In this document: positions 1,541-34,236 of the stretch, one piece after another
Layout: each line of letters opens with the position of its first letter
Position numbering within the stretch: the first letter of the stretch is position 1
Origin: Amoebophrya sp. A120
Lineage: Eukaryota > Protista > Dinoflagellata
Assembly: GCA_905178155.1 (NCBI GenBank)
Contig: CAJINV010000003.1
Coordinates: 1,191,560-1,255,559, forward strand
Reading direction: 5' to 3'
Length of the DNA stretch: 64,000 bases
Notes under the pieces: model-generated
Database searches by the model: none
What the model was told of the DNA's origin: nothing
The model's input: only the letters and a program-made list of their open reading frames with translations
Made by a program: the position numbers and the translations under genes

Positions 1541-1559
1541 ACCTTACTCGGCAAGAGCT

Positions 1560-4500
1560 GCCCGATTCGGCGTCTGGGTTTCCCGACTCGGCGGCGCCGC
1601 GGCACGCGCGGGCGGGCCAACGTGAAAGCTTCCCGATTCGGCGACGCCGCAGCAAGCCGGGGCGGGCCAAAGTTGTCCGGCTCGGCGCCTCCCTAAGTTT
1701 CCCGATTCGGCGACGCCGCAGCAAGCCGCGGCGGGCCAAAGTTTCCCGATTCGGCGATGCCGCAACAGGCCGGGGCGGGCCAAAGTTGTCCGGCTCGGCG
1801 CCCCAGTTTCCCGATTCGGCGACGCCGCAGCACGCCGGGGCGGGTCAAAGTTGTCCGGCTCGTTGCCAAAGTTCCCCGGTTCGGCGATGCCGCACCAAGC
1901 CGCGGCGGGCCACAGTTTCCCGCTTCGGCGATGCCGCAGCAGGCCGGGGCGGGCCAAAGTTGCCCGGCTCGGCGCCCCAGTTCCCCGATTCGGCGACGCC
2001 GCAGCAAGCCGGGGCGGGCCAAAGTAGTTCGGCCTGGCGCCAAAGTTCCCCGATTCGGCGATGCCGCAGCAAGCCGCGGCGGGCCAAAGTTTCCCGGCTC
2101 GGCGATGCCGCAGCCGGCACGGGCGGGCCAAACAAAGTTGTCCGGTTCGGCGCTACAGTTTCCCGATTCGGCGATGCCGCAGCACGCCGGGGCGGGCCAA
2201 AGTTGTCCGGCTCGGCGCCAAAGTTCCCCGATTCAGCGATGCCGGAGCAAGCCGGGGCGGGCCAAAGTTTCCCAATTCGGCGACGCCGCAGCAAGCCGGG
2301 GCGGGCCAAAGTTGCCCGGCTCGGCGCCTATCTAAGTTCTTCGATTCGGCGACGCCGTAGCAAGCTGCGGCGGGCCAAAGTTTCCCGGTTCGGCGATGCC
2401 GCAGCAGGCCGGGGCGGGACAAAGTTGTCCGGCTCGGCGCCACAGTTTCCCGATTCGGCGACGCCGCAACGCGCCGAGCCGGACAACGCCGGGCCGGGCC
2501 AAAGTTGTTCGGCGCGGCGCCAAAGCTCCCCGATTCGGCGACGCCGCAGGCAGCAAGCCGCGGCGGGCCAAACAAAGTTTCCCGATTCGGCTATGCCGCA
2601 GCAGGGCGGGGCGGGCCAAAGTTGTCCGGCTCGGCGCCACAATTTCCCGATTCGGCGATGCCGCAGCAAGCCGGGGCGGGCCAAAGTTGTCCGGCTTGGC
2701 GCCAAAGTTCCCCGATTCGGCGAAGCCCCAGCAAGCCGCGGCGGGCCAAAATTCCCCGACTCGGCGACGCCACAACAGGCCGGGGCGGGCCAAAGTTGTC
2801 TGGTTCGGCGCCAGAGTTTCCCGATCCGGCGATGCCGCAGCACGCCGGGGCGGGCCAAAGTTGTCCGGCTTGGCGCCAAAGTTCCCCGATTCGGCGATGC
2901 CGGAGCAAGCCGGGGCGAGCCAAAGTTTCCCGATTCGGCGAGGCCGCAGCAAGCCGGGGCGGGCCAAAGTTGTCCGGCTCGGCGCCTAAGTTCCCCGATT
3001 CGGCGACGCCGCAGCAAGCCGCGGCGGGCCAAAGTTTCCCGATTCGGCGATGCCGCAACAGGCCGGGGCGGGCCAAAGTTGTCCGGTTCGGCGCCGCAGT
3101 TTCCCGATTCGGCGACGCCGCAACACGCCGGGGCGGGCCAAAGCTGCCCGGCTCGGCGCCAAAGTTCCCCGATTCGGCGACGCCACAGCAGGCCGCGGCG
3201 GGCCAAAGTTTCCCGATTCGGCGACGCCGCAGCAGGCCGGGGCGGGCCAAAGTTGTCCGGCTCGGCGCTACAGTTTCCCGATTCGGCGATGCCGCAGCAC
3301 GCCGGGGCGGGCCAAAGTTGTCCGGCTCGGCGCCAAAGTTCCCCGATTCAGCGAAGCCGGAGCAAGCCGGGGCGGGCCAAAGTTTCCCAATTCGGCGACG
3401 CCGCAGCAAGCCGGGGCGGGCCAAAGTTGCCCGGCTCGGCGCCTATCTAAGTTCTTCGATTCGGCGACGCCGTAGCAAGCTGCGGCGGGCCAAAGTTTCC
3501 CGGTTCGGCGATGCCGCAGCAGGCCGGGGCGGGACAAAGTTGTCCGGCTCGGCGCCACAGTTTCCCGATTCGGCGACGCCGCAACGCGCCGAGCCGGACA
3601 ACGCCGGGCCGGGCCAAAGTTGTTCGGCGCGGCGCCAAAGCTCCCCGATTCGGCGACGCCGCAGGCAGCAAGCCGCGGCGGGCCAAACAAAGTTTCCCGA
3701 TTCGGCTATGCCGCAGCAGGGCGGGGCGGGCCAAAGTTGTCCGGCTCGGCGCCACAATTTCCCGATTCGGCGATGCCGCAGCAAGCCGGGGCGGGCCAAA
3801 GTTGTCCGGCTTGGCGCCAAAGTTCCCCGATTCGGCGAAGCCCCAGCAAGCCGCGGCGGGCCAAAATTCCCCGACTCGGCGACGCCACAACAGGCCGGGG
3901 CGGGCCAAAGTTGTCTGGTTCGGCGCCAGAGTTTCCCGATCCGGCGATGCCGCAGCACGCCGGGGCGGGCCAAAGTTGTCCGGCTTGGCGCCAAAGTTCC
4001 CCGATTCGGCGATGCCGGAGCAAGCCGGGGCGAGCCAAAGTTTCCCGATTCGGCGAGGCCGCAGCAAGCCGGGGCGGGCCAAAGTTGTCCGGCTCGGCGC
4101 CTCCCTAAGTTTCCCGATTCGGCGACGCCGCAGCAAGCCGCGGCGGGCCAAAGTTTCCCGATTCGGCGATGCCGCAACAGGCCGGGGCGGGCCAAAGTTG
4201 TCCGGCTCGGCGCCCCAGTTTCCCGATTCGGCGACGCCGCAGCACGCCGGGGCGGGTCAAAGTTGTCCGGCTCGTTGCCAAAGTTCCCCGGTTCGGCGAT
4301 GCCGCACCAAGCCGCGGCGGGCCACAGTTTCCCGCTTCGGCGATGCCGCAGCAGGCCGGGGCGGGCCAAAGTTGCCCGGCTCGGCGCCCCAGTTCCCCGA
4401 TTCGGCGACGCCGCAGCAAGCCGGGGCGGGCCAAAGTAGTTCGGCCTGGCGCCAAAGTTCCCCGATTCGGCGATGCCGCAGCAAGCCGCGGCGGGCCAAA

Positions 4501-7500
4501 GTTTCCCGGCTCGGCGATGCCGCAGCCGGCACGGGCGGGCCAAACAAAGTTGTCCGGTTCGGCGCTACAGTTTCCCGATTCGGCGATGCCGCAGCACGCC
4601 GGGGCGGGCCAAAGTTGTCCGGCTCGGCGCCAAAGTTCCCCGATTCAGCGATGCCGGAGCAAGCCGGGGCGGGCCAAAGTTTCCCAATTCGGCGACGCCG
4701 CAGCAAGCCGGGGCGGGCCAAAGTTGCCCGGCTCGGCGCCTATCTAAGTTCTTCGATTCGGCGACGCCGTAGCAAGCTGCGGCGGGCCAAAGTTTCCCGG
4801 TTCGGCGATGCCGCAGCAGGCCGGGGCGGGACAAAGTTGTCCGGCTCGGCGCCACAGTTTCCCGATTCGGCGACGCCGCAACGCGCCGAGCCGGACAACG
4901 CCGGGCCGGGCCAAAGTTGTTCGGCGCGGCGCCAAAGCTCCCCGATTCGGCGACGCCGCAGGCAGCAAGCCGCGGCGGGCCAAACAAAGTTTCCCGATTC
5001 GGCTATGCCGCAGCAGGGCGGGGCGGGCCAAAGTTGTCCGGCTCGGCGCCACAATTTCCCGATTCGGCGATGCCGCAGCAAGCCGGGGCGGGCCAAAGTT
5101 GTCCGGCTTGGCGCCAAAGTTCCCCGATTCGGCGAAGCCCCAGCAAGCCGCGGCGGGCCAAAATTCCCCGACTCGGCGACGCCACAACAGGCCGGGGCGG
5201 GCCAAAGTTGTCTGGTTCGGCGCCAGAGTTTCCCGATCCGGCGATGCCGCAGCACGCCGGGGCGGGCCAAAGTTGTCCGGCTTGGCGCCAAAGTTCCCCG
5301 ATTCGGCGATGCCGGAGCAAGCCGGGGCGAGCCAAAGTTTCCCGATTCGGCGAGGCCGCAGCAAGCCGGGGCGGGCCAAAGTTGTCCGGCTCGGCGCCTA
5401 AGTTCCCCGATTCGGCGACGCCGCAGCAAGCCGCGGCGGGCCAAAGTTTCCCGATTCGGCGATGCCGCAACAGGCCGGGGCGGGCCAAAGTTGTCCGGTT
5501 CGGCGCCGCAGTTTCCCGATTCGGCGACGCCGCAACACGCCGGGGCGGGCCAAAGCTGCCCGGCTCGGCGCCAAAGTTCCCCGATTCGGCGACGCCACAG
5601 CAGGCCGCGGCGGGCCAAAGTTTCCCGATTCGGCGACGCCGCAGCAGGCCGGGGCGGGCCAAAGTTGTCCGGCTCGGCGCTACAGTTTCCCGATTCGGCG
5701 ATGCCGCAGCAAGCCGGGGCGGGCCAAAGTCGTCCGGCTTGGCGCCAAAGTTCCCCGATTCGGCGATGCCGCAGCATGCCGCGGCGGGCCACAGTTTCCC
5801 GATTCGATCGGCGACGCCGCAGCAGGCCGGGGCGGGCCAAAATTGTCCGGCTTGGCGCCACAGTTTCCCGATTCGGCGACGCCGCAACACGCCGGGGCGG
5901 GCCAAAGTTGTCCGGCTCGGCGCCAAAGTTCCCCGATTCGGCGATGCCGGAGCAAGCCGGGGCGCGCGGGCCAAAGTTTCCCGATTCGGCAACGCCACAG
6001 CACGCCGGGGCGGGCCAAAATTGTCCGGCTCGGCGCCTAAGTTCCCCGATTCGGCGACGCCGCAGCAAGCCGCGGCGGGCCAAAGTTTCCCGATTCGGCG
6101 ACGCCACAGCAGGCCGGGGCGGGCCAAAGTTGTCCGGCTCGGCGCCAAACAAAGCTCCCCGATTCGGCGACGCCGCAACAGGCCGCGGCGGGCCAAAGTT
6201 TCCCGATTCGGCGACGCCGCAACAGGCCGGGGCGGGCCAAGCAAAGTTGTCCGGTTCGGCGCCGCACGCAGTTGCCCGATTCGGCGACGCCGCAGCACGC
6301 CGGGGCGGCCGGGCCAAATTTTTCCGGCTTGGCGCCAAAGTTCCCCGATTCGGCGACGCCGCAGCAAGCCGCGGCGGGCCAAAGTTCCCCGATTCGGCGA
6401 TGCCGCAGCAGGCCGGGGCGGATCAAAGTTGTCCGGTTCGGCGCCAAAGTTTCCCGCTTCGGCGATGCCGCAGCACGCCAGGGCGGGCCAAAGTTGTCCG
6501 GCTCGGCGCCAAAGTTCCCCGATTCGGCGATGCCGGAGCAAGCCGGGACGGGCCAAAGTTCCTCGATTCGGGCGATGCCGGAGCAAGCCGGGGCGGGCCA
6601 AAGTTTCCCGATTCGGCGACGCCGCAACAAGCGGGCGGGCCAAAGTTGTCCGGCTCGGCGCCTAAATTCCCCGACTCGGCGACGCCGCAGCAAGCCGCGG
6701 CGGGCCAAAGCTTCCCGATTCGGCGATGCCGCAGCAGGCCGGGGCGGGCCAAAGTTGTCCGGTTCGGCGCAATAGTTTCCCGATTCGGCGATGCCGCAGC
6801 ACGCCGGGGCGGGCCAAAATTGTCCGGCTCGGCGCCAAAGTTCCCCGATTCGGCGATGCCGCAGCAGGCCGGGGCGGGCCAAAGTTGTTCGGTTTGGCGC
6901 CTCAGTTTCCCGGTTCGGCGATGCCGCAGCAGGCCGGGGCGGGCCAAAGTTGTCCGGCTTGCCGCCAAAGTTCCCCGATTCGGCGACGCCGCAGCAAGCC
7001 GCGGCGGGCCAAAGTTTCCCGATTCGGCGATGCCGCAGCAGGCCGGGGCGGGCCAAAGTTGTCCGGTTCGGCGCCAGAGTTTCCCGATCCGGCGATGCCG
7101 CAGCACGCCGGGGCGGGCCAAAGTTGTCCGGCTTGGCGCCAAAGTTCCCCGATTCGGCGATGCCGGAGCAAGCCGGGGCGAGCCAAAGTTTCCCGATTCG
7201 GCGAGGCCGCAGCAAGCCGGGGCGGGCCAAAGTTGTCCGGCTCGGCGCCTAAGTTCCCCGATTCGGCGACGCCGCAGCAAGCCGCGGCGGGCCAAAGTTT
7301 CCCGATTCGGCGATGCCGCAACAGGCCGGGGCGGGCCAAAGTTGTCCGGTTCGGCGCCGCAGTTTCCCGATTCGGCGACGCCGCAACACGCCGGGGCGGG
7401 CCAAAGCTGCCCGGCTCGGCGCCAAAGTTCCCCGATTCGGCGACGCCACAGCAGGCCGCGGCGGGCCAAAGTTTCCCGATTCGGCGACGCCGCAGCAGGC

Positions 7501-10500
7501 CGGGGCGGGCCAAAGTTGTCCGGCTCGGCGCTACAGTTTCCCGATTCGGCGATGCCGCAGCAAGCCGGGGCGGGCCAAAGCCGTCCGGCTTGGCGCCAAA
7601 GTTCCCCGATTCGGCGATGCCGCAGCATGCCGCGGCGGGCCACAGTTTCCCGATTCGATCGGCGACGCCGCAGCAGGCCGGGGCGGGCCAAAATTGTCCG
7701 GCTTGGCGCCACAGTTTCCCGATTCGGCGACGCCGCAACACGCCGGGGCGGGCCAAAGTTGTCCGGCTCGGCGCCAAAGTTCCCCGATTCGGCGATGCCG
7801 GAGCAAGCCGGGGCGCGCGGGCCAAAGTTTCCCGATTCGGCAACGCCACAGCACGCCGGGGCGGGCCAAAATTGTCCGGCTCGGCGCCTAAGTTCCCCGA
7901 TTCGGCGACGCCGCAGCAAGCCGCGGCGGGCCAAAGTTTCCCGATTCGGCGACGCCACAGCAGGCCGGGGCGGGCCAAAGTTGTCCGGCTCGGCGCCAAA
8001 CAAAGCTCCCCGATTCGGCGACGCCGCAACAGGCCGCGGCGGGCCAAAGTTTCCCGATTCGGCGACGCCGCAACAGGCCGGGGCGGGCCAAGCAAAGTTG
8101 TCCGGTTCGGCGCCGCACGCAGTTGCCCGATTCGGCGACGCCGCAGCACGCCGGGGCGGCCGGGCCAAATTTTTCCGGCTTGGCGCCAAAGTTCCCCGAT
8201 TCGGCGACGCCGCAGCAAGCCGCGGCGGGCCAAAGTTCCCCGATTCGGCGATGCCGCAGCAGGCCGGGGCGGATCAAAGTTGTCCGGTTCGGCGCCAAAG
8301 TTTCCCGCTTCGGCGATGCCGCAGCACGCCAGGGCGGGCCAAAGTTGTCCGGCTCGGCGCCAAAGTTCCCCGATTCGGCGATGCCGGAGCAAGCCGGGAC
8401 GGGCCAAAGTTCCTCGATTCGGGCGATGCCGGAGCAAGCCGGGGCGGGCCAAAGTTTCCCGATTCGGCGACGCCGCAACAAGCGGGCGGGCCAAAGTTGT
8501 CCGGCTCGGCGCCTAAATTCCCCGACTCGGCGACGCCGCAGCAAGCCGCGGCGGGCCAAAGCTTCCCGATTCGGCGATGCCGCAGCAGGCCGGGGCGGGC
8601 CAAAGTTGTCCGGTTCGGCGCAATAGTTTCCCGATTCGGCGATGCCGCAGCACGCCGGGGCGGGCCAAAATTGTCCGGCTCGGCGCCAAAGTTCCCCGAT
8701 TCGGCGATGCCGCAGCAGGCCGGGGCGGGCCAAAGTTGTTCGGTTTGGCGCCTCAGTTTCCCGGTTCGGCGATGCCGCAGCAGGCCGGGGCGGGCCAAAG
8801 TTGTCCGGCTTGCCGCCAAAGTTCCCCGATTCGGCGACGCCGCAGCAAGCCGCGGCGGGCCAAAGTTTCCCGATTCGGCGATGCCGCAGCAGGCCGGGGC
8901 GGGCCAAAGTTGTCCGGCTCGGCGCCAAAGTTCCCCGATTCGGCGATGCCGGAACAAGCCGGGGCGGGCCAAAGTTCCCCGATTCGGCGACGCCGCAGCA
9001 AGCCGGGGCGGGCCAAAGTTGTCCGGCTCGACGCCTGAGCTTCCCGATTCGGCGACGCCGCAGCAAGCCGCGGCGGGCCAAAGTTTCCCGATTCGGCGAC
9101 GCCGCAGCAGGCCAGGGCGGGCCAAAGTTGTCCGGTTCGGCGCCACAGTTTCCCGATTCGGCGACGCCGCAGCACGCCGGGGCGGGCCAAAGGTGTCCGG
9201 CTCGGCGCCAAAGTTCCCCGATTCATTCGACGACGCCGCAGCATGCCGCGGCGGGCCAAAGTTTCCCGATTCGGCGACGCCGCAGCAGGCCGGGGCGGGC
9301 CAAAGTTGTCCGGCGCGGCGCAACAGTTTCCCGCTTCGGCGACGCCGCAGCACGCCGGGGCGGGCCAAAGTTGTCCGGCTTGGCGCCAAAGTAAGTTCCC
9401 CGATTCGGCGATGCTTGCCGCAGCAAGCCGCGGCGGGCCAAAGTTCCCCGGTTCGGCGATGCCACAACGGGCCGGGGCGGGCCAAAGTTGTCCGGTTCGG
9501 CGCCACGCACAGTTCCCCGACTCGGCGACGCCGCAACACGCCGGGGCGGGCCAAAGTTGTCCGGCCCGGCGCCAAAGTTCCCCGCTTCGGCGATGCCGGA
9601 GCAAGCCGGGGCGGGCCAAATTTCCCCGATTCGGCGATGCCGCAGCAAGCCGGGGCGGGCCAAGCAAAGTTGTCCGGCTCGGCGCCTAAGTTTCCCGATT
9701 CGGCGACGCCGCAGCAAGCCGCGGCGGGCCAAAGTTCCTCGCTTCGGCGATGCCGCAACAGGCCGGGGCGGGCCAAAGTTGTCCGGTTCGGCGCTAAAGT
9801 TTCCCGATTCGGCGATGCCGCAGCACGCCGGGGCGGGCCAAAGTTGTCCGGCCCGGCGCCAAAGTTCCCCGATTCGGCGATGCCGCAGCACGCCGCGGCG
9901 GGCCAAAGTTTCCCGATTCGGCGATGCCGCAGCAGGCCGGGGCGGGCCAAAGTTGTCCGGCGCCGCGCTACAGCTTCCCGATTCGGCGATGCCGCAGCAG
10001 GCCGGGGCGGGCCAAAGTTGTCCGGCTTGGCGCCAAAGTTTCCCGATTCGGCGACGCCGCAACAAGCCGCGGCGGGCCAAAGTTTCCCGATTCGGCGACG
10101 CCGCAGCAGGCCGGGGCGGGCCAAGCAAAGTTGTCCGGTTCGGCGCCACAGTTTCCCGATTCGGCGATGCCGCAGGCAGCACGCCGGGGCGGGCCAAAGT
10201 TGTCCGGCTCGGCGCCAAAGTTCCCCGCTTCGGCGACGCCAGAGCAAGCCGGGGCGGGCCAAAGTTTCTCGATTCGGCGATGCCGCAGCAAGCCGGGGCG
10301 GGCCAAAGTTCTCCGGCTCGGCGCCGAAGTGCCCCGCTTCGGGGATGCCACAGCAAGCCGGAGCGGGCCACAGTTGTCCGGCTCGGCGCCAAGGTTTCCC
10401 GGCTCGGCGATGCCGCAGCATGCCGGAGCGGGCCGAGCAATGCTGCCCGGCAGGGCGCCAAAGGTTCCCGAGTCGGCGACGCCGCAGCAAGCCGGAGCGG

Positions 10501-11400
10501 GCCAAAGCTGTCCGGCTCGGCGCAAGGGTTTCCCTATGTATTCGGCGACGCCGCTGGAAGCGCGGGCGGGCCAAAGCAGTCCGATTCGGCGCCGAGGTTC
10601 CCCGATATGGCGAAGCCACAACAAGCCGGCGCGGGCCAAAATTTTCCGGCACGGCGCCAGCCAAAGTTCCCCGATTCGGCGATGCCACAACACGCGCGGG
10701 CGAGCCAAAATTGTCCGCGCCGGCAATGCCGCTGGCGCCATCTGCGTACGGGAACAGCCCCGAAAGGCCTACCTCTCGACAACGCCCGCAAGTCAATAAA
10801 TGCGGGCGGGGGGTCCGTCTCCGATTCGGCGCCCGGCAAAGCGCTCCGATAATTAGGCGACGCCGCAACAAGCGCGGGCAGGCCAAAGCTGCCCGGCTCG
10901 GCGATGCCGCCGACGCCATCTGCGTACCGGCCGGGGAAGCCCCCGCCGGCCTCTCTGGCGACAGCCCCCCTGCAAATACTCTGGCGCGGGCGGGGGGCCC
11001 CGATTCGGCGCCAAAGCAAGCTAGCTTCCCGGCTCGGCGGCGCCGCTGAAGCCTGCTGCGCAAGTACAAGACCAGCCCCGGCAGGACTTCGCCCCGGCAG
11101 CCTCCGCAAAACAGCAGGAGCGGGCGGGGCGGCCCCGATTCGGCCGGCGGCGCCGCCACAAGGCAAGCGCGGGCGGGCCGGCCGGCGTTTTCCGGTTCGG
11201 CGATGCCGCTGGCGCCATCTGCGTACAAGAACAACCCCGGCAAGCCCTTCGATGGCCCTCGCAAAGCAACACGCGCGGGCGGGGGGCCCCGATTCGGCGA
11301 CGCCGCCGCGAAAGTTTCCCGATTCGGCGACGCCACTGCAAGCGCGGGCGGGCCAAAGTTGTCCGATTCGGCGACGCCGCTGGCGCCGCCTACGTACTAG
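1560..11400. repeat. GC-rich tandem satellite B, mixed 44-bp and 65-bp units with higher-order duplications
   Basis: Short unit CCCGATTCGGCGACGCCGCAGCAAGCCGCGGCGGGCCAAAGTTT; the long unit adds a 21-nt GTTGTCCGGCTCGGCGCCAAA-type segment. Identical ORF translations recur at offsets 1115, 1297, 2412 and 1851 bp. The array diverges after ~10300. Confidence 0.95.
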
Positions 11401-15356: not shown

Positions 15357-15709
15357 TCCTTACGATCTAAATGTCGCGGCAAGAGTTGTAGATGTTGAAA
15401 CTTCAAGTTGTAAATACCAAAGCTAATGCGTGCAGGGCTCTCGAGTGCCCCTCCGGTCCTCACCCTTGCGCTTACTAGTTCTAGACGTTACGGTCAGATT
15501 CCAGCCACTCTGGGTCTGTGGCAGCCGAACAGCTTTTCATCAATGGCGTTCAACGCGGAAAACCAAAACGAAAACTACTCTTTCAAAATAAATGGAGGCC
15601 GAGGTAGTAGACACTCTGACTTCCACGATCACGGCGACTCTGCAACAAGATGCATGACGAAACTCTCGCTAGCGTTTGTTATCTCGCTGTTATAGCAATC
15701 AGGCAGAAA

Positions 15710-16640
15710 CCTCATTGCTCCCAAGGTCGCGCTCTAGCTGCCCACTCGCAAGGAAGAGCGGGGCACGCTGAGTGACGAAGCAACACCACAACGCATTTGA
15801 CGATTGCCGGGGCCACAGGGCTGTATTTCTTACAAGCCCTTTCGCTTCTCAAGCGCGTCTCCCCTTCAGAACAACTCAACGCTTGGCCAGGAGAACACAC
15901 GCTGCCGAGATCAGAGCGCCAGATTTAGGCCGCGTCATTGCTCGGGTGCTGCGCCGCCGGGCGGCTGCGCGATACGCGCGCCCCCCTTGCGCCCAAGAAT
16001 AAACGCCAGCGGGCCCCAAGTGGTACTGGGCGCCGCGCGTCCTGTGGCAGAGTCACTTTCCGCCGAGCCCGCCGCGCGCCCTGCCGGCCGCGCTTTGAGT
16101 AGCCGCCCGGGCTGCACGCTGCTTGTGCCCAAGAGTGGCGGTCGGCGAGGGTAGGCGGGCTGGCACGTAGGGCCAGGGCGCAAGGGCGCGCTCGCTCAGG
16201 TGGGTCGAACAATTGACCGGCGCGCCCCGTGGCGTCTGCGGAATGGAACGCGCCGGAAAACCATGGCGGCGCCGCTCCGTGGCGCCTGGGCATGAGCCCG
16301 CGCGCCACCCCGGCGCGCGGGCCCTTGGGCTGCATCCGCCTCCCCGCGCCCGCCGCGGCCGGCTTCTCGTCTCGTGCCCGTATGCCAGCAGCCTTCGCAG
16401 TTTGCGGCGTCAACCGGCTGGGTCAAGGTATCCATTATCTCCGTGGCAGTTTGCGCAGAAACGACCGGACCGCTCACGAACGCGTCTAGATCCTGCGCCA
16501 GCTGTGCCTCTTGTGCGCGTCATGTAGTGACAACCTCCAACAGATGCAAAGTTGCTCCCGCAATACCCGCGCCCCTGCATTCCCTCTGAGGTCACGCACG
16601 TTCGCAAACTTGCCCGCTTCATTCCTTTTATTCTTATGCT
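15710..16640 (-). pseudogene. Decayed gene relic, copy 1 of a diverged tandem pair (possibly CPW-WPC-domain derived)
   Basis: Shares anchors with 16925-17803 (TGACGAAGCAACACCA, CGCCCAAGAATAAACGC, GCCCGCTTCATTCCTTT). The minus frame reads GRAAPSTTWGPLAF...LAL*SRQRVFSWPSVE with stops, resembling CxAPxxYxGPC...WxxxCxxxWPC. Confidence 0.4.
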
Positions 16641-19974: not shown

Positions 19975-22900
19975 TTACATCTCTGTAATTTTGCTATACT
20001 CATGCTTCCAAATGGCGCGCAGATCAAAAACTGACCCAAAAGTTTGGTATTTCTGAGCAGGCGGGTTCGTTCCCGCACGATCACAGAATGAAGTGGGGTT
20101 CCCCGCATTCGCATGCACGTATCGCAGCGACAGTACCTCCGCAAGCACCGAAAGTGACCCCGGAACGACCCGAGAAAAAAGCCGCTCCGCTGCGCATACC
20201 AGCCAGAGCGCGTGGCTGCTTTGGTTTTCCTCAAACAGGTGCCAGGCCCGGAGATGGTAGTGGCGCGCAAGCCTCAGCACGTCGTCATTGGTGCAGTCCA
20301 GCAGCGCATGCCCCAAGGCAGGACTGGTGTAAACTTCGGGTGGGCGGTCCAGCAGTTCCGCGCCCTGGGTAAGATTGCAGCCCAGCAGTGCTGAAGGCAA
20401 ATGGAAATACCTCTCCATAGCAAACGGCGGAAGCCCAAGTGAGGCCGCAGAAGTGACGAAAAGAGAACCGAAAGACGACGCCTCACTTTTCGACGCTTTT
20501 GTGTCAACCATTGTCACTGCGCCGGTCACGCTCCATCCATGCAAAGAAGCGTGCCGCGCACGAAATTCGTCGCCCCAGGAACGAATATTAGCACGGGACC
20601 CAATACGCAGAAGAGTGGCGAGCGCTGTACTGGGTGCCTCCGCTGCGGCCTGTTTTGCGACGGTTTCCGGTAGAACGGTGGTCCGCAGCCAGTTCGCGAT
20701 TTTGCGTGAGGAAGAAAGTGACTCCTGCGGTTGTGTCCTCGTGTGCTGCTGCTGCAGTAGCGGGTCGCTGGTGTACAGATCTTGCACCCGTTGCAGCCCC
20801 TGCAAGTCGTGCGAACACAAGATATTGTAAGAGCGCGTGTCTTCCCCAATGACTTCCTCGACGCTGATTCGCCCCTCGACGTGGTCTGCACCGGTTGCCA
20901 ACCAGTATCCAGTGCAAATATGTCTGGGTCTGGAAGAATGCAAGATTTGTCGTGCACCTGCTCGCGGACCACGCGCATGGTGAGGTCCGCAATGCACACA
21001 GGAGCAGGACAGGTCATTTTGCAAGAACTTCCTCGTGCCTTTGCCGCATGAGAAATCCGCCTTCTGCCTGCCAAGAAGTTGGGAGCTTTTAATTTTTGGC
21101 GTTTATTTTGCAGTACTCGAAATTTCAATTTGGCATGACAACTATACAGCCTTCCAGACCTAGACGTATTTTTTCCAGCTGATAACCAGAGGTGCGCGGC
21201 AATGTCTTCCCCGTAGCGCTCCCACATATCAAATGCAGCAAATGTGTCTGGGTCTGGAGGAATACAGATGTCTGTCATGCTCTTCGTGCTCGAGCAAGCT
21301 AGCAGGTCTCGTCTGGCACGCCAGCCCTAGCATGACAGGCTTTGAGGAGGTTTCGTTATCGTTTCTTAATGCCTCAATCCGCGTAAGCAAACCCCCGCCT
21401 TCGGTGATAAGAAGTGGGCAACTTCTGCTGTCAACATGCATGCCAGAGGTTTGTGTCATTTGAAATGCGCATCAGAAGTTCGCGCTCTTCCAGACGCAGA
21501 TGACATATTTGCAATGCATACTCCACTTCGAGGTACGAAAGTCGCTTGGCTCTCACTGGATTTGTTGCATCGTCGTTGCTGGGCGAGTTTGTGGATAAAC
21601 TTGCTTTTGAGCGCTCCGGACCAGCACTAATTACTGTATGCGACGGGCTTGATCTTGCTCTTTCAGCAGCATCCGCGGCGAATGGCCCAGATAGAAACAG
21701 CAGCGCTGAGTGCAAGATCCGGGCACATAAGTAGCCGTGTTCTTCAAACAGCCATTGCACGACACCGTCGGCGTTCAGCTCTATAACCTGCTCAGGTGTT
21801 ACAATCTCAAATCGGCTACCATATAATAAATATGGAAATCAGTGATGCAGGAGCGCATGATCTAGCCAATTCTTTTTCTTTCTCACAGGATTGCGCATGA
21901 CAAGCTCGGGAGCTGGAGTTCCAAACCCCACTACAATCAGGCGAAATTTGTATTGCAGCAAGTGTAACGCTCTGCGAGTCTGTCATGCTCGTCATGCAAC
22001 ACAAAGGTCAGACTCCATTGGAACGTTTGAGATTGTAAAAACACCTGAGCGGGTTATAAGATCGCTCCCATACTTTTCGAACGCCAGGAATTGTATCTGC
22101 TTGGCCCGCAGCATCTCGCTTGCTCCGCGCAAAACTGCGAAGTCGTTCCGCTCGGCGTCTACTTTCAGGAACGCGACGGTATTCTTCATTTTTCCAGAGA
22201 ACGACCGCGGAGCCGCAGCTCCACGAGGATCCACCGGGTTCGAAGATTCTGTAGTTTTTTTCCGGCTCTTCATCACAAAGCTCTCCTGCAGCGTTTCTTC
22301 ATCCTCACGGGATATTTCCTGCTCACCACTCTTGTTACATCCTCGGAAGAACACCGAATCAAGCGTCACGATGTCCACTTCCTCGTTTCCGACGCCGGTC
22401 CCGTGGCACAGACCATGAGCGACCAGGCTTCCTACCTCCATGCCATCGCAATACAGGGTTTGGCCCAGTTCCTGCAGCTCACCGACGCCCTTGCGAAACA
22501 CGGTCAACCGGTCTAGGGACGCCGGGAGTTCGCGCCTCCGGAAGCCGCTCATGAGGTTGTTGTAGAAGGCCTGGTCCATAATTTTTTGCGTCCAGGGGGA
22601 GCGACCGGCGGAGGACTGCGACTTCTGGTGAGCATTTGCCATAGCTCGGGCTCTCGCGAGTGTTGCGGTCGCGTTTGTCTGCTGCTCGACGCGGTTGTGA
22701 TAAAATTGTGCGAGTAAGCCCTTCCCACGAACCACCGACGGCTCAAAACAAGACACCCGCAGCTTTGGTACTCTGTTGTACTTGTTCATGGGGATGATCT
22801 CCTCCTGGCCTAGTCTTTCACGACCGGATTGTTTCGCTAGTACCTCGTCCTCTGCCCGGTCCGACGTTCCACCATCCTCAACGGGGGGTCCACTTGCTGC

Positions 22901-23746
22901 AGCACGTGTCAACGTCACGACGGTTGTGTCTTTATCCACCTCTTGCAGAACGGGAAGGAAGTTTATTTCTTGTCCTACTTCTCCCGTTTCAGTCACCTCC
23001 GAAATCTTCTTTCCGCCCTCGAAAAAGCTGTTCGCAAGGTAGTCAAAGAGCTGCATGAACAAACTGGATACATCACCTTGAAAAACCCCCACGTCAATCA
23101 TTTCGATCACTACAGGGACTACAGGTGGTGGATTCTTTGTCCGCCTAGCCGGTCCAATAGAACTTTCTTCGCTGTCTTCCCGTGATGTCGTTGCTTCCCG
23201 AGTCGGGGGATCATTTGCCAAGAGAGTGCTATTGAGCCCCTCCAGTACCGTCCAGATAATCGCGGGAAGAAGGGGCTCGATGTCCTTGAACTCTTTACTC
23301 GGCTTGCCGAGGGTCTGGCGCCATAAACGTTCCTGCACGATGGGGATGTCACTTTCACTTCGTTGTCGCGCAAGTAGATCTTCATCGCTGTTGGTGCTTC
23401 CAGCAGCGCTGCCATGATGCAGATTTTTTGCTTCTTCTGCTCCGGTCGTATGATCATGTGCGGAGGTACCTACAACCCCATTCACGTGTCGTAGTCCTGG
23501 CGCCTCGTAATCGTTTACCGGACTTTCCACCGTCGTTGAGCAGCAATTTTCGGGGTCACAACTCGGGATTGCCAGACCCCGGACGCAGCACGTATCCCAA
23601 TTCTGAAATACAGGGCTTGTCCAACTCGCACAGATTTCTCCCGCAGGCACAGTAGGCAACGAAGAAAAGAGCACGGCGAAAAGCAAAGACGACCGGAAAG
23701 AACAGATGGACGATATGCAGCCGCAGCGAGACGATAAATCTTCCAT
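19975..23746 (-). CDS. FkbM-family (Methyltransf_21-like) SAM-dependent methyltransferase with N-terminal hydrophobic segment; exons 23746-22060, 21777-21522, 21222-21186, 20901-19975 (~968 aa; 3' end uncertain)
   Basis: Motifs MIDVGVFQG, VSCFEP, VDIVTLDSV, FLKVDAERNDFAVLRGA, QFLAFE. After removing three non-canonical introns the frame continues as ...VVQWLFEEHGYLC...SYNILC. Exon lengths 1687+256+37+927 give consistent phases. Confidence 0.75.
20902..21185 (-). mobile_element. Introner/MITE-like non-canonical intron, 284 nt including one direct-repeat copy
   Basis: Minus strand CTGG|TTATC...GGATA-CTGG has an exact 4-nt direct repeat. Inverted arms are AAATATGTCTGGGTCTGGAAG (20916-20936) and the reverse complement of 21151-21171. 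Removal joins ...AAHLW|LATGAD... in frame. Confidence 0.8.
21223..21521 (-). mobile_element. Introner/MITE-like non-canonical intron, ~299 nt, same TIR family as 20902-21185
   Basis: Arms GCAAATGTGTCTGGGTCTGGAGG (~21238-21260) and the reverse complement of CTTCCAGACGCAGATGACATATTTGC (~21487-21512). A length of 3n+2 exactly repairs the frame offset between the flanking ORFs. Boundaries are uncertain by a few nt. Confidence 0.65.
21778..22059 (-). mobile_element. Introner/MITE-like non-canonical intron, 282 nt including one direct-repeat copy, ~30-bp TIR
   Basis: TATAACCTGCTCAGGTGTTACAATCTCAAA (21782-21811) is inverted at 22026-22058 with one mismatch and a 3-nt indel. Flanks are GATC/GAGC on the minus strand. 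It contains the in-frame stop that truncates the ORF, and removal gives EKYGSDLNADGVVQW. Confidence 0.85.
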
Positions 23747-26305: not shown

Positions 26306-29300
26306 CTACCCTTCATGTTCGTTAGTGCGTGCGACGTTGAAATCTGTCCATGCGTTGTCCCAGGAAATCTGCAAATCTATTTTCGGAAAGCGATGTTGAA
26401 ATTGACACAGGGCTCCTACGCACGAGATACAGGGATAGTGTGATACGTGCAGCCTGACGCGCCCACTTGGGACGGTGGTAATCGCGGGTAGAGCGCCATC
26501 TTCTGAAGTTGCAGGGGACGCATCTTTCCTTCCTGCTGCTTCCTCATGAGATTCCAACTCTTGCAGCAGTCGACGAATTGCCGTTATTTCGGCGTGGCTT
26601 GCGTTGGCGTCACGACTGCGGTAACCTCGAATCGTGTGCGGCCACGATGTGCGGCACGAATGCCCAGTTGCATGGTCGGCGTCGCACCCGACGCGACAAC
26701 TTCCCGAAAGACGCCTCTCTTCCGGTTCTATTTCGCCCTCCTCGGCAGTGCCTGCCTGCTTCTTCACTGTCAATTCCCACGAAAGCTCAGCTGTGATGTC
26801 AGCTGCGCGTGGAGGGCGGTAGAAAAACGGACCCTCGGAATAGTTCTGGTTTTCGGCCTTTCTGTCGAACACTGCCTTTTCTCTGTCGACGGCAAGAAGC
26901 ATTCCCATCTTTCTCAGCACGAATTCCGTGCCGTAGGCACCGAGTGACTGAAAGGACTGCTTGGCGGCCAACTTTCCGAGAAGAGTCGCATCCCCCGTAT
27001 TGAGAACGTGTTCAACAGCACGGACTACTGGATCGAAGATCCGGTGCGCATCTTTGTCAAGGGTGTGCCAATGTTCGGACCGCGCACTGGCGGAGGTCAA
27101 GGAGTCGAAAATCCTTATCCAGTCACCAATCGTTGTTGTAGCATGCTGACGCTCTTCGGTATTCTTCTCGCTAGACTTCCACGCCGCATGAAGACCCACC
27201 CGTCTCCAAATTCTGTAGACGCCGTCTTGGAGGCGGTCAAGCGACCACTCACCGGCAGGACTGTTTTCAGACTCTCGCCGCATAATGCCACTGTTTTTCT
27301 CGCTCTCATGCGCAGCTCTGAGTCGCAACAGGTGCACTCCCCAGCAGAAATTTGAGAAAATGAGCGGTGACCCCTGATCCCACGCCTTTTGGTCTTTCGT
27401 TTCGTCGTCGATCAACTTGCAGGACTGCGCTACAATCTCAGGCGCGTGTATTCGAAAGCGGCCGAGCAGTGGAACGACATGTAAGGTGTTGATAAAATCC
27501 CGCTCCAGAGATAAATCGCCCCCAAACCTGCCCATCAACGCTTTTGCTTGGCTGAGTAGGCGTGCGACTTGCTTGAGTTCCCCGAAGCGCTCGAAGGCGT
27601 TCGCGGCTTCGCGATAGGTTGCCACGTCTGGCTGCACGTCGCTCGACGCCCAGAATTTCAGCACCCTTTGCCACACCGCGCGCGTTGCTTCCGGCGCTGC
27701 CCGGGCGGCGCAGGCACGAAGCGCCGCGTTCAGAACGCGAATGTTCGGCTTTTCGAGTCGTTCCAGCAGTCCGACCACCGAGTCGCAGAGTCCACCGGAT
27801 TCGCACGCACGAAGCGCTGCAGCCACGCAAGCGTCGTCAATCATCTCTCCTTCCTCGGGCAGAAGGTTCAGCGCTTTCTGCCACTGCCCCGCTTTCGCGC
27901 AAGCCTCGATCGCCGATGCAGTGGCGATCAACAGAGACCGAGCCGCGCTAGTTGTACCGGTTTTATTTGAGCACCTTCTTGAAGATGTCCGCGCACGTTT
28001 CATCTGGTCCAGCAGGTCCACGGCCTCTCGCCATGCTCCGACGCGCTGACAAGACCCCACCGCCGAAGCGTAGGCCATTGGATCTGGCGCACCGCGCGTT
28101 TTCAAGCGGCGAAAAACGTCCAGAGCGTCGCGCCACCGCCCTGCTCGTTCACAGGTGTTCATACAAGCTGTGTAGCACACCAGGAGTGTCTTCCACAAAT
28201 CGTCTTCTTGTTCTTGACCAGCATCAACATCTCGAACGCTGGTCACGATGTAGGGGTCCTGTTGAAACGTCGTGACACTACCCTCTGCCTGTGTCACACC
28301 AAACTGGCCGGCACTGCTCTCCTTCAGCTCGTCATACACTTTCTCAGCTTGGTCCAGCAGTCTTAATGCTTCGTCCCATTTTCCTGCTCGCCTACAAGCG
28401 CTGATGCATCCTCCGTAGAGCCTGCACAGATTTGTCGTCCACGTCACGACACTAAGGCCACCGGACTGGTGTTCGCTTTTCTTGTAGTCTTCCAAAATAC
28501 GAACCGCTTCCTCCCATCTCCCCATCTGCGCGCAAACTGAGATCGTTGCAGCGAACGCGTGCACATCTTCCCCTGCGAGAAGTCCCGATCGATCGAAGAT
28601 TCGCACTGCGGTTCGCCAGTCGCGGAACTGACCACAGGTTGTGATTGCGGCCGTAATGGACCGCGGATTTTCTTGCAGATGCGGTAACTTGTCGAGAAGC
28701 TGCAAAATCCTCTCCACTGTCGGACAACACGACAAGGCGACGGTGCACGCCACGACGGAAGGTGTCTCAAATTGCAAACTCGTCTTTTCGAACAAATCAT
28801 ACGCATCAGCCGTGCGTCCGGAATTCCGGTAAATCTGCATCATGTCGACTGTGTGAAATTCATCCAGTTTCAACCCGAGTTCGTCCAGAGTCGCGTTCCC
28901 CTCACTGCTGAGGAGCCAGTCCGCAAACGCAGCACCGGTTGTGGAGTTTTTACGCCGAAAACGCATCAGAATTCCGGAAAGCGCACGACTGCGCGCCGTG
29001 GAAGAAGTATGGTATTTTTCGCCGCCGTCGCAAGAGTCGGATTTGAAGATCCGGCGGAAAAGCGGCTCGAAGCTCGGGATTCCCTCGCCGTCGCTCCGAA
29101 GTGCGTGAAAAAACCGGTCCTCTCGGTCGTGCGAAGTTCGTGAGCTGCGGTAGGACGTCGTGGAGGGGGCGTCGGTCTCTTCTTTCTGTCTCTGCAATAT
29201 CGTCTCATCATTTGAGGGCGCCGCGTCTTTTGTATTCCGGGACGTTGCGACAGACGTAATCGAACGCCAGGAGGAGGTGGGCTTTCCAAAAGGCGGGCCA

Positions 29301-29353
29301 CGACCGCTGCGTCCGAACCTCTTGCAAACATCATGTTGCCGCACATATCGCAT
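26306..29353 (-). CDS. Pentatricopeptide-repeat (PPR) protein with C-terminal zinc-dependent deaminase-fold domain, ~1015 aa, intronless
   Basis: About 10-11 PPR-like motifs (e.g. DVHAFAATISVCAQMGRWEEAVRILEDY, PDPMAYASAVGSCQRVGAWREAVDLLDQMK). C-terminal SHAEITAI (HAE 26596-26588) and VRLHVSHYPCISCVGALCQF (PCISC 26434-26420). The first ATG is at 29353 and opens an Arg/Ser-rich N-terminus. Confidence 0.85.
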   Translation of the reverse strand: MRYVRQHDVCKRFGRSGRGPPFGKPTSSWRSITSVATSRNTKDAAPSNDETILQRQKEETDAPSTTSYRSSRTSHDREDRFFHALRSDGEGIPSFEPLFRRIFKSDSCDGGEKYHTSSTARSRALSGILMRFRRKNSTTGAAFADWLLSSEGNATLDELGLKLDEFHTVDMMQIYRNSGRTADAYDLFEKTSLQFETPSVVACTVALSCCPTVERILQLLDKLPHLQENPRSITAAITTCGQFRDWRTAVRIFDRSGLLAGEDVHAFAATISVCAQMGRWEEAVRILEDYKKSEHQSGGLSVVTWTTNLCRLYGGCISACRRAGKWDEALRLLDQAEKVYDELKESSAGQFGVTQAEGSVTTFQQDPYIVTSVRDVDAGQEQEDDLWKTLLVCYTACMNTCERAGRWRDALDVFRRLKTRGAPDPMAYASAVGSCQRVGAWREAVDLLDQMKRARTSSRRCSNKTGTTSAARSLLIATASAIEACAKAGQWQKALNLLPEEGEMIDDACVAAALRACESGGLCDSVVGLLERLEKPNIRVLNAALRACAARAAPEATRAVWQRVLKFWASSDVQPDVATYREAANAFERFGELKQVARLLSQAKALMGRFGGDLSLERDFINTLHVVPLLGRFRIHAPEIVAQSCKLIDDETKDQKAWDQGSPLIFSNFCWGVHLLRLRAAHESEKNSGIMRRESENSPAGEWSLDRLQDGVYRIWRRVGLHAAWKSSEKNTEERQHATTTIGDWIRIFDSLTSASARSEHWHTLDKDAHRIFDPVVRAVEHVLNTGDATLLGKLAAKQSFQSLGAYGTEFVLRKMGMLLAVDREKAVFDRKAENQNYSEGPFFYRPPRAADITAELSWELTVKKQAGTAEEGEIEPEERRLSGSCRVGCDADHATGHSCRTSWPHTIRGYRSRDANASHAEITAIRRLLQELESHEEAAGRKDASPATSEDGALPAITTVPSGRVRLHVSHYPCISCVGALCQFQHRFPKIDLQISWDNAWTDFNVARTNEHEG

Positions 29354-29845
29354 TCTGTTTTTGTTGACTCCAGTATCATCTACAAAAGCGCCTGGCGCTG
29401 CACGGTGATTCACTTATCGTTGCTACGATGAGGACGAGCCGTAGCCTAGCGTATCTTCAAAATTCAAATTACAGGATCCAAAAATCGACCGAGTCGCGGC
29501 TCTAGTGTGTGTGATCAAAGTGCTTCCAGATCAAAAAACGCTTTCGGACGACGATCCTCGATGTGACGGCTTCTTTGCGAACAACAGATTCAATTCACCA
29601 AAAGCCGCTTGCACGATGATACGTTCATATGTGGAGGTGAAGTTTGAGGCATTTCTGCGAGGCGCAGAGAAAATTCGTGCTGGTGTGCACTCACTGTTTT
29701 TTTTTGTCTTTCACCTTTGACGTCATCGAAATCAAGATCCGCTCGAATGTCTGGAATTAACAGCAGTAATCTCAAGTTCCTAGGTGGCGGGCCACCAGTA
29801 TTTCTTGGAATTTAGTACTCTCACCCGCTGTTACAGCAGTCGAAA

Positions 29846-31355: not shown

Positions 31356-33632
31356 TCAAGTTTTCTCTGCATAAATCAGAACTGAGGCACACATTTCATC
31401 TACGTCCATGTTTTCTAAATGCTGATATTCTGGCCGCACAGCTCCCCCATGGATCTTAAAGCGCGCGGCCTGATCCGGGGTGAGTGTGTCGTCTGTCAGC
31501 GCGTCGAGGCCCTCTTCGCCAAAAATCTCGACTTCGTTGATGACGATGTTCGAGAAGCCGATTTTTCGCAGCATGGGTTCCAGCTCTGGGAGCCGGGCAA
31601 ACATCCGCATGCAGATCGGGAATTCTACAGGGCTGCCTTCTACTTTGCTGTCGTTTTCTGCAGGAGCGCCTGCGCCAGAAACCGGACATCTTTCCTTTGC
31701 TTGATTTGCAGCGCTTGATGTCCCGGGGAGCGCTTCCCGCATCGTTGTTGTGCAAATGGCCATGCGTCCGCCCTTCTTCAGCGCACGATACACCTGCGAA
31801 AACGCGCGCACCTTGTTCGGAATCAAGCAAAAAGCGCCATTCGAGATACAGACGTCGAATGCCGACTCGGCCATCCCATTCTCCGGCTTGTTGTTCGCCT
31901 CCTCAACAAAGGGTAAGCGCTCAATATCGGCACAAACGAAGCCTATGTTGCCCCTGCCTTCCCGTTCCGCGCGCTGCTTGGCGTGGTCGAGCTCCTTGCG
32001 CGAGAAGTCGACGGCAAGGACTGTCCCGTCTTCCCCCGTTTTCGACGCCGCGAGGAACGCGTCAACGCCGAGACCGCACCCGAGTTCCAGGACTTTTTCC
32101 CCGGCGCAGATCTTTGCCCCAAGAAACGGATTGCCCACGCCCTGGAAGTTGTAGAGGTTCTGCTTCCCGATCGCTTCCTGCTCTTCCAAAGTGTACCCCA
32201 GCGCGGTGAGCCACTTTTGTGCGCGCAAGAGATTCCCCTCGTGGTGCGCCGTGGCGCCGACCCGCTCGTACGCCGTGCGAGTCTCCTCCTTCTCGGGCAC
32301 GACAGTCTCGTCCTCTTGCTCTTCGTTGATCTGAATATTGCTTTCGTCGTCCTCGTCGTAAACGTACAGCACGTCGGCGTACGGGCTCTTAAATGGGAAG
32401 AACCTTTTCTCGTTATTTGCAGCTTCATCTGTTTCCAGAAGCATGCAATCCCTGCACGTTTCCAAAATTTTTGCCTTCGTGACCGCATAGCTGGCCTTGT
32501 CCTCCGGCTCGTCCAGATCGCATTCATAGGTCATTTGTGACAGAATTAACAACTCCTGCGACGAGCGTTCTTCCAGAAGATGCTGTTGATCGTCTTGTTC
32601 AGTCGCCTTCTGTGCATTCGCTCTTTCCAGAAGTCGATGGCAGTGCGGAACACCCAAGTAGTGATGCAGATGCGCCTTGCCCGCTACAACCAATGTTGTG
32701 GTTATCGATGAATCTGTATCTGGGGCTTGTTCTGTAGTTTTGCCATTATCTTTCGTCTGTTGGAACACCCGCCACGCCATGCTCCAGTCTTTCAAGCACT
32801 GCGCACCGAACATCCGCAACAAAGCCGGATTGCACATGGAGAAAAGCTCGCCAGGTTCGTGTCTCGACTCCGCCGAGTACACATCCCGTCCGCTCATCAA
32901 GGACTCGAATAAGCGGAAATAACCAACGCTGCTGAAGGGAAAACCGGTTTTCTCGAGGAGACTTTCGCCGTCAGCGGCGGACTCGGTTGGCGGGAGAAAG
33001 GCCCGGAAATCCTCGTCCGGTGGCCCAAGATACTTTTCAACTTCTAGCAAACTTTCCCAGGGCGGTAAATACCCCTTGTCACACAATTCCTGTACGTGTG
33101 CTTTTCTATCTGCCGCTGCTTCCAGGGGGCAAAAAGCGGCGGCAAGCGGGCGAGGTATGAAGCCGCCGACGATTTTTACCCGATCTGCATTTCGGCGCCA
33201 CGACTCAAACAGTTTCTCATAGGGGTCCAGGTCGTGCCCCTCGGTGCCAATCTCCTTGTAGGCCGCCTTGAAGTCGGCGAAGTCGGTGAATTTTCCGTCT
33301 CGAAAATACGCGTCCACAACGGGCCCTTGCATGTCATGGCTGAAGTGCTCCAGGACGACTTGCAGTTTCGCAGACGCAGAAGTTGTACTCGTTGTGCTCT
33401 GTAGTTGCAAGGCAGCATCGGATATTTTCTCCAGCAGCGCACAGATCCGGTTTTCCGAGTGGTACTCACCAAACCAAATCACGCACTGCCGACTGTCCCC
33501 GGTCGCGCAAGCCAGCTCGGTGAGCTCTTTGCCGCCTCGTCGAAGGAATCTCTGGGCATTTTGGTTCTTTTCCAGGGAACGATAGAGAAAGGCGTGTGGG
33601 AAGCGCATGGGTTCGGTCTCGTTGGCAGTCAT
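31356..33632 (-). CDS. Fusion of a ChaN-like (haem-uptake/Tiki superfamily) domain and an arsenite-methyltransferase-like class I SAM methyltransferase
   Basis: N part: VIWFGEYHS, VVLEHF, AQCLKDWSMA, LVVAGKAHLHHYLGVP. C part: FQGVGNP, VLELGCGLGVDAFLAASKTGEDGTVLAVDFS, FDVCISNGAFCLIPNKVRAFSQVYRALKKGGRMAI. The first ATG is at 33632. Confidence 0.75.
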   Translation of the reverse strand: MTANETEPMRFPHAFLYRSLEKNQNAQRFLRRGGKELTELACATGDSRQCVIWFGEYHSENRICALLEKISDAALQLQSTTSTTSASAKLQVVLEHFSHDMQGPVVDAYFRDGKFTDFADFKAAYKEIGTEGHDLDPYEKLFESWRRNADRVKIVGGFIPRPLAAAFCPLEAAADRKAHVQELCDKGYLPPWESLLEVEKYLGPPDEDFRAFLPPTESAADGESLLEKTGFPFSSVGYFRLFESLMSGRDVYSAESRHEPGELFSMCNPALLRMFGAQCLKDWSMAWRVFQQTKDNGKTTEQAPDTDSSITTTLVVAGKAHLHHYLGVPHCHRLLERANAQKATEQDDQQHLLEERSSQELLILSQMTYECDLDEPEDKASYAVTKAKILETCRDCMLLETDEAANNEKRFFPFKSPYADVLYVYDEDDESNIQINEEQEDETVVPEKEETRTAYERVGATAHHEGNLLRAQKWLTALGYTLEEQEAIGKQNLYNFQGVGNPFLGAKICAGEKVLELGCGLGVDAFLAASKTGEDGTVLAVDFSRKELDHAKQRAEREGRGNIGFVCADIERLPFVEEANNKPENGMAESAFDVCISNGAFCLIPNKVRAFSQVYRALKKGGRMAICTTTMREALPGTSSAANQAKERCPVSGAGAPAENDSKVEGSPVEFPICMRMFARLPELEPMLRKIGFSNIVINEVEIFGEEGLDALTDDTLTPDQAARFKIHGGAVRPEYQHLENMDVDEMCASVLIYAEKT

Positions 33633-34236
33633 GATTCTGAGTAAGGTGGTAAGTGGCAAATGTCTGCTCAATATCAGGTTCAGGCGGGTTCGGGAAACGG
33701 AAGTACACAATGCGGTTGAAAGAGTGACAAGATCTGATGCTGGCGGGACAGACAGAACGGGTTCTCGACAACAGGGGTTAGGAACCTGGGTCTTTATTTG
33801 GAACTGCGTGTATAGACTCGCTGATCGTACTGCTTTAGTCACCTAGTACGCTCAGAAACTCTCCTGATGAGCAGCTCATTTCGTCGCTCAAGTACCAAGA
33901 GCCTCATAGTTCTCTCCTGAGGATGAATGCCTTTTTCTGAAACTGTCACCAAAAAGATTTGCGATCCATTACTCGCACCAGCACTACAACTGCAGGTGAT
34001 GATCCTCGTGCTCGAAGCGAACACATAAACGACCTGGACCGATTCCGTTAGAAAATCGCTTCAGACTTCTGTTTCCATTTGGCACCACTCACAACGACTA
34101 GAATCAGCGATGCGAGCAGGGTTGTAGGCATCCGGTGCGCTGCCAAGTACACTATAGTGGTGATAATTTCCTCGTTGTGCGACTACATCCTGTTTAACAT
34201 AGAAGCGCAACGCATAGTTGTGCAACTCCACTGCAC

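Follow-up and report, generated by a model that had tools for sequence, protein, structure and literature searches.

Three transposon-like inserts without GT-AG ends are spliced from an FkbM-domain gene of Amoebophrya sp. A120

In Amoebophrya sp. A120, more than 60% of introns are non-canonical according to Farhat et al. (2021, PMC7789003), who describe 29,850 repeated introners; the inverted repeats of these begin with TAT, and their direct repeats measure 3-5 nt. According to that report, nearly all spliceosomal proteins are present, U1 snRNA was undetected, minor snRNAs are absent, and the mechanism of removal is given as unknown. Most A120 introner families were assigned to DNA elements with terminal inverted repeats (TIRs) of unassigned superfamily, as judged from 22 of the 58 rows of Dataset file 8 of Gozashti et al. 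(2025, PMC12130899); since single genes with tens of introners are recorded in that paper, three within 1.2 kb are unremarkable. The nonconventional introns of Euglena (PMC12501133, PMC11282704) likewise have non-GT-AG ends that pair with each other, a 3' spacer longer than the 5' spacer and GT-AG introns as neighbours. In Fritillaria borealis, introns derived from elements with TIRs and target-site duplications are described as being cut by an altered spliceosome (PMC11282704; bioRxiv 10.1101/2025.08.15.670264). The literature search yielded no study of the splicing mechanism or of a fixed register for A120 introners; figures S19-S25 of PMC7789003, in which the register may be visible, were judged by their legends, and subscription papers lay outside its scope.

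The window analysed here is a stretch of 64,000 nt of the A120 genome. One of its minus-strand genes contains three inserts of 282, 299 and 284 nt (Table 1), as the initial annotation had proposed. To follow their removal, contigs of four runs (X1-X4) from one sample were used; these runs were taken as RNA by guess, and rare forms are invisible in contigs. The runs shared 0.66-0.77 of the words of a 3-kb stretch, which is approximately the fraction left once 865 nt are removed. The junction letters that had been predicted were found in the RNA-type contigs, which jumped exactly 284 nt in 4/4 runs, 299 nt in 4/4 and 282 nt in 2/4. At junction 1, the contigs of X4 were broken at the joint and had loose ends matching it, and X3 had no row for this joint. 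The ambiguous letters at joints 1, 2 and 3 numbered 2, 1 and 6. In run X5, positions 20922-21807 (insert 2 and most of insert 3) lay in a single contig at genome depth; therefore, the inserts are present in DNA. All three inserts are removed from the RNA to the base despite their non-GT-AG ends. The outcomes named beforehand as contrary to splicing, namely retention of the inserts, use of GT-AG sites or lack of expression, were not encountered, and the spliced form was the main contig.

Table 1. Exons, introns and target-site duplications of the FkbM-domain gene (positions in the window)
Feature	Position	Strand	Evidence
Coding exon 1, ATG at 23746, bulk of divergent FkbM (PF05050) domain	22060..23746	-	RNA-type contigs X1/X2 covering 22059-23777/23748; Pfam; spliced ORF
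Intron 1, 282 nt = 277-nt TAT...ATA element (21782-22058) + 5 nt; own family	21778..22059	-	Joint 21776->22059, 2/4 runs; fold z -5.7
Exon 2, 256 nt, FkbM domain completed here	21522..21777	-	Contig pieces 21521-21776 in X1, X2; Pfam
Intron 2, 299 nt = 294-nt element (21227-21520) + 5 nt	21223..21521	-	Joint 21221->21521, 1 ambiguous letter, 4/4 runs
Micro-exon, 37 nt, between two same-family elements	21186..21222	-	Retained in 4/4 runs
Intron 3, 284 nt = 279-nt element (20906-21184) + 5 nt	20902..21185	-	Joint 20899->21184, 6 ambiguous letters, 4/4 runs
Last coding exon through stop codon	19975..20901	-	Contigs X1, X2, X4; spliced product = public A120 protein
Element 1 duplication, GATCT (upstream) / GAGCT (downstream)	22059..22063 / 21777-21781	-	RNA retains upstream letter at position 3
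Element 2 duplication, TGGAG / TGTGG	21521-21525 / 21222-21226	-	
Element 3 duplication, exact, CTGGT / CTGGT	21185-21189 / 20901-20905	-	

Template switching typically happens where hairpins lie between direct repeats, and the RNA nature of X1-X4 was guessed; it was therefore considered whether the joints arose by reverse-transcriptase template switching across the hairpins or by disappearance of the elements from the DNA. Such an origin is hardly credible, given the few ambiguous letters at joints 1 and 2, the predominance of the spliced contig and the presence of the inserts in X5. Moreover, the same runs spliced six GT-AG introns in neighbouring genes, and X1 and X2 had zero depth in the intergenic bin 15484-16147, as RNA should show. 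A full open reading frame and a complete domain were also obtained from the spliced form alone. The spliced frame encoded 968 aa, whereas retention of any insert gave an ORF of 584-879 aa and skipping of the micro-exon one of 772 aa. The Pfam match to FkbM, which in the unspliced sequence covered profile positions 73-149 with 19.9 bits, extended after splicing to 74-172 of 173 with 26.5 bits and passed the cut-off. The initial annotation had stated that removal of the inserts restores an FkbM frame with a 37-nt micro-exon. The continuous frame and the micro-exon were borne out, but the FkbM domain spans junction 1 alone; junctions 2 and 3 lie beyond it, in the unannotated C-terminal part.

The 968-aa product was identical to a public unnamed Amoebophrya sp. 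A120 protein (P0001), so the introns of the locus are already in the public A120 gene model; the RNA contigs are not necessarily independent of that model. The protein search gave the A120 protein itself and one distant FkbM-like protein, and these included no orthologue in which an empty insertion site could be looked for. The distant homologue could be aligned through junction 1, with one 6-residue gap just upstream of the junction. The observation is therefore real, the intron class is already known and the locus is already annotated; introns of this kind have been reported in the tens of thousands, and the three described here are among them.

All three elements (277, 294 and 279 nt) begin with TAT and finish with ATA. 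The many X5 contigs that end exactly at 20906 (19) and 21520 (12) with mixed flanks confirmed TAT and ATA as the element ends and showed elements 2 and 3 to be repeated. A 4-nt direct repeat followed by a spacer of one arbitrary nucleotide had been proposed initially; this description was replaced by a 5-bp target-site duplication abutting TAT...ATA. The repeats of elements 1, 2 and 3 agreed at 4/5, 3/5 and 5/5 positions, and by offset the flanks matched at 12/15 positions for 5, compared with 0/9 for 3 and 3/12 for 4. In 3/3 inserts, the removed length was that of the element plus 5 nt. A scan of 11-44 kb for TAT...ATA inverted repeats gave 5 matches with a score of at least 10, every one of them at this locus, whereas none of 10 shuffles gave any; no other such element was found in this part of the window. 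Insert 2 alone scored only 9, its inverted repeat being the weakest of the three. Elements 2 and 3 point the same way and were homologous from end to end (global alignment z 11.6), whereas element 1 was unrelated to them (z below 1). No transposase can be encoded, since 277-294 nt is too short and stops were present in 8/9 sense frames. The inserts are likely non-autonomous, MITE-like TIR DNA transposons: they are short and non-coding, with a target-site duplication of constant length in the family of elements 2 and 3. Transib, some hAT elements and retroviral-type integrases generate duplications of 5 bp.

Copies of the family of elements 2 and 3 were sought in metagenomes with a 21-nt arm motif, which gave 149 loci. 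All except one came from a single assembly (148/149, accession prefix JACKZZ01). The remaining locus was in another metagenome record (L146), and its arm motif there indicates that the family is present in environmental DNA. One JACKZZ01 exon was 81% identical to an A120 protein; therefore, the source of this assembly is a close relative with a genome different from that of A120. From it, 118 unique elements of 244-324 nt were called; as an exact match to one motif and an arm score of at least 10 were required, well-kept copies are favoured, and 37/149 loci gave no unique element because of a short flank, an altered TAT or a low arm score. TAT was where expected in 155/173 motif matches. The duplication was exactly 5 nt in 89/118 copies and agreed at 4 or more of the 5 positions in 113/118; exact duplications at offsets 2-4 and 6-10 were found in just 0-8 of 118, and no target-site consensus was seen among the 118 copies. 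Viral contigs gave 0 matches to the family. Element 1 had partial matches in X5, in X3 and at two of the loci (L052, L118).

Flanks sufficient for a frame test were available for 73 copies, the other 45/118 lacking them. Under a coding model alone, used without RNA and with a strand accuracy of 91% (n 66), coding continuity was best after removal of the element plus 5 nt (mod 3) in 49/73 copies (p 4e-9), and of the confidently oriented copies, 12 had the orientation of elements 2 and 3 and 13 the reverse one. By this model, copies of the family seem to be inserted into genes in either orientation. Three other loci (L003, L020, L049) carried a repeat arm with no partner within ~500 nt and are candidates for longer or interrupted elements; no recognisable transposase frame was seen in them by eye.

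With respect to intron class, the inserts are almost certainly A120-class introner elements. They are RNA-supported non-GT-AG introns with an inverted repeat of at least 8-20 nt, a direct repeat of 3-5 nt and genomic repetition in the A120 host, so the initial assignment to Amoebophrya-type elements bounded by inverted and direct repeats held. The GT/GC-AG ends of U2-type introns were absent, as were the AT-AC or GT-AG ends with a donor consensus of U12-type introns. Non-GT-AG ends, TAT inverted repeats, boundary direct repeats, a size of ~250-300 nt, repetition and non-coding content are shared with the introners of Farhat et al. (2021, PMC7789003), and the legend of Fig. S19 there gives an example with a 5-bp direct repeat, as here. 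In that account, the direct repeats vary between 3 and 5 nt and the splice positions vary as well; here, the duplication was strictly 5 bp in the family of elements 2 and 3, and one register was shared at this locus. The A120 motif of TAT, 7 nt and at least three A was found in both arms of element 3 and in the 5' arm of element 2; it was missing from the 3' arm of element 2 and from element 1, which in this respect differs from the introners as described. The TIR families of PMC12130899 are similar in length (250-305 bp) and have mixed, largely non-canonical splice sites; a 5-bp duplication was given for fam19 by manual inspection, automated calls ranging from 2 to 5, and among the 22 of 58 A120 rows no numbered family matched these elements.

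The Euglena signature 5'-N3CDG...CH'GN5-6|R, in the form given in PMC12501133, was not found here, CDG and CH'G being absent; the spacers were 0-1 and 4-5 nt instead of 3 and 5-6 nt, and a purine started the next exon in 1/3 only. In Fritillaria, certain end dinucleotides are preferred (AG-AC, AG-AT), whereas here the terminal bases follow the target site; that system nonetheless provides a precedent for the mechanism preferred below.

The value of the locus lies in the handle that it offers on the question of removal, since imperfect duplications constrain the cut register. Two of the duplications are imperfect, and RNA therefore tells which copy stays; it was the upstream one. The number of upstream letters retained in RNA was 3-5 for insert 1, 4-5 for insert 2 and 0-6 for insert 3. 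The common register was thus 4 or 5, with the 5' cut 0-1 nt before TAT and the 3' cut 4-5 nt past the last ATA. Retention of the upstream duplicate, in a register that all three inserts can share, is a new detail from this locus. In register 4, the intron ends are TT..GC, GT..TG and TT..GG, and in register 5, TA..CT, TA..GG and TA..GT; for insert 1 alone, CT..AG is also compatible. GT..AG was absent from every allowed register of all three inserts, in agreement with what had been claimed of their ends. An AT..AG register for insert 1 was ruled out by the RNA joint. Because the element is symmetric, its asymmetric cutting would have to stem from the machinery.

Between the two registers, 4 is favoured indirectly by a lysine at one family locus (L004) and by NT starts in a published table. 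At this locus of a related organism, a single and indirect case, the two duplicates disagree in their fourth and fifth letters, and the lysine that stands in the A120 homologue is obtained only if at most 4 letters are kept. In Table S4 of PMC7789003, all nine commonest non-canonical splice types of A120 start with NT; the table may have been shaped by sliding of the aligner in repeats, and its 3' ends are mostly AN, which was seen in 0/3 inserts here. The upstream duplicate of the L004 copy (244-537) differs at positions 4-5 in such a way that the intron would begin with GTAT, like a normal donor, which hints at drift of the first intron bases towards G. The canonical donors of the window had A at +3 in 5/6 cases and a GTAT start in 2/6.

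Most likely, a spliceosome with a relaxed GT-AG rule reads the inverted repeats as landmarks. Removal of the element plus 5 nt restores the pre-insertion length for any target sequence. The 5' cut may fall 1 nt before TAT, so that the intron would start N-U-A-U-(G/C), agreeing with a normal donor at +2 to +4 and leaving the first base free. The 3' cut would require no sequence signal and would be placed by how far it lies from the 3' repeat. As a point against this mechanism, neither a branch nor a pyrimidine signal could be identified. The element could function in either orientation, since the same repeat stands at both ends. Partners would be matched by transcription order, element 2 being complete and paired before element 3, and not by equilibrium stability. 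The mechanism as a whole, in which TIR transposons with 5 nt are excised by a GT-AG-relaxed spliceosome using the inverted repeats as landmarks, is considered on balance probable.

The initial annotation had proposed structure-guided splicing beside ordinary GT-AG introns. Coexistence was verified, all 6 other clean joints in these runs being GT-AG; structural guidance did not gain support, in view of the cross-pairing of inserts 2 and 3, the lack of covariation and the mismatched hairpin base. In its pure form, as proposed for euglenid nonconventional introns, this explanation holds that the arms form a long stem, whose base would set the distances at which the RNA is cut by an activity that is non-spliceosomal or independent of snRNAs. 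It is consistent with arm pairing of -31 to -46 kcal/mol compared with ~ -14 in shuffles, with the folding of inserts 1 and 3 (z -5.7 and -2.9), with one geometry in two unrelated families (element 1 and elements 2/3), with function in both orientations and with a 3' spacer that, as in Euglena (PMC12501133), is longer than the 5' one. The sense strand of the copies also showed a weak preference for G-U over A-C (47 to 30, p 0.07). However, no folding advantage over shuffles was seen for insert 2 (z 0.33). For the 5' arm of element 2, pairing was better with the 3' arm of element 3 (-43.5) than with the 3' arm of its own element (-31.2). In the 635-nt region, the equilibrium fold was cross-paired, with -221.5 compared with -193.1 kcal/mol for separate folds. 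Such a fold predicts skipping of the micro-exon, yet the micro-exon was retained in 4/4 runs and a joint skipping it was absent from all four (0/4), as far as contigs, which drop rare forms, can indicate.

Across the 118 copies, neither the covariation test nor the G-U/A-C comparison spoke for selection on RNA pairing: no covariation of the arms was found, own arms beating those of other copies in just 49/118, and stem-base positions 4, 5 and 7 were paired in 36, 43 and 29% of copies. Therefore, equilibrium structure alone is a poor explanation, and purely structure-guided removal appears unlikely. When prefixes of the transcript were folded, element 2 was self-paired when first complete, before element 3 was made, so a role for structure could be saved if ends are matched in order during transcription. 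At equilibrium, the element-2 hairpin was lost once the 5' arm of element 3 was made; ordered matching would hence require kinetic trapping. Six further loci carry two family copies 47-242 nt apart, which means that the cross-pairing conflict is not unique to this gene.

Alternatively, a dedicated repeat-binding protein, for example one derived from a transposase, might mark the ends on DNA or nascent RNA and bring the splicing machinery, pairing being incidental. The match of the repeats to the family consensus without covariation, the presence of TAT at most expected places and the independence of splicing from the equilibrium fold agree with this possibility. It is nevertheless quite improbable: the candidate is hypothetical, a single reader would have to serve the 1,954 families reported in Table S7 of PMC7789003 via very short shared ends, and recent transposition explains the conservation of the repeats equally well.

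Returning to the preferred relaxed spliceosome, a single positional splicing code for A120 TIR introners is put forward tentatively. In this code, the donor would be N|UAU, one base outside the 5' repeat, and the acceptor would lie at a constant 4 nt beyond the 3' repeat, whatever the sequence there; any element that duplicates 5 bp would thus be removed without a scar in either orientation, and ends would be matched by order of synthesis. If this is true, the chaos of splice dinucleotides would reflect random target sites read through one ruler. If one ruler holds, the spliceosome could render a whole transposon class harmless, and genes could be predicted from DNA alone. The 37-nt exon between same-family elements constitutes a natural test between equilibrium structure, folding during transcription and the reading of motifs; under the proposed code, the retention of micro-exons that lie between neighbours of one family would be counted as showing synthesis-order matching.

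Other features of the window were also recorded. All RNA-confirmed introns and Pfam-matched frames in 11716-39600 lie on the minus strand and form a co-oriented gene block. On the same strand, a 1,035-codon frame at 26306-29413 combines PPR repeats with a weak cytidine-deaminase-like match at the C terminus, an arrangement reminiscent of PPR-DYW RNA editing factors, and an 828-codon frame at 31356-33842 carries a ChaN/Tiki haem-uptake domain and a SAM methyltransferase domain. A repetitive open frame with 6,758 codons, in which Ser, Leu, Gly and Val abound, occupies 43723-64000 (minus strand) and runs past the window edge; it had no convincing Pfam match, and RNA-type contigs reaching 9 kb in length span its 3' end. 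Similar repeats were found in short frames downstream of it (exons at ~40100-43700 and 39289-39993), ending near a match to the Peptidase_S74 chaperone. Together, these frames possibly encode one giant fibre-like protein with a self-cleaving chaperone.

Positions 1-10717 consist of GC-rich satellite DNA, with an 81-nt unit at 1-1528 followed by a higher-order array of 21/44/65/109-nt units. A short degenerate telomere-like repeat was present inside the contig at 18060-18104 and 18261-18303. DNA contigs break at this site, where a 43-nt piece had ~9x genome depth, from which it may be concluded that a small repeat adjoins the telomere-like site.
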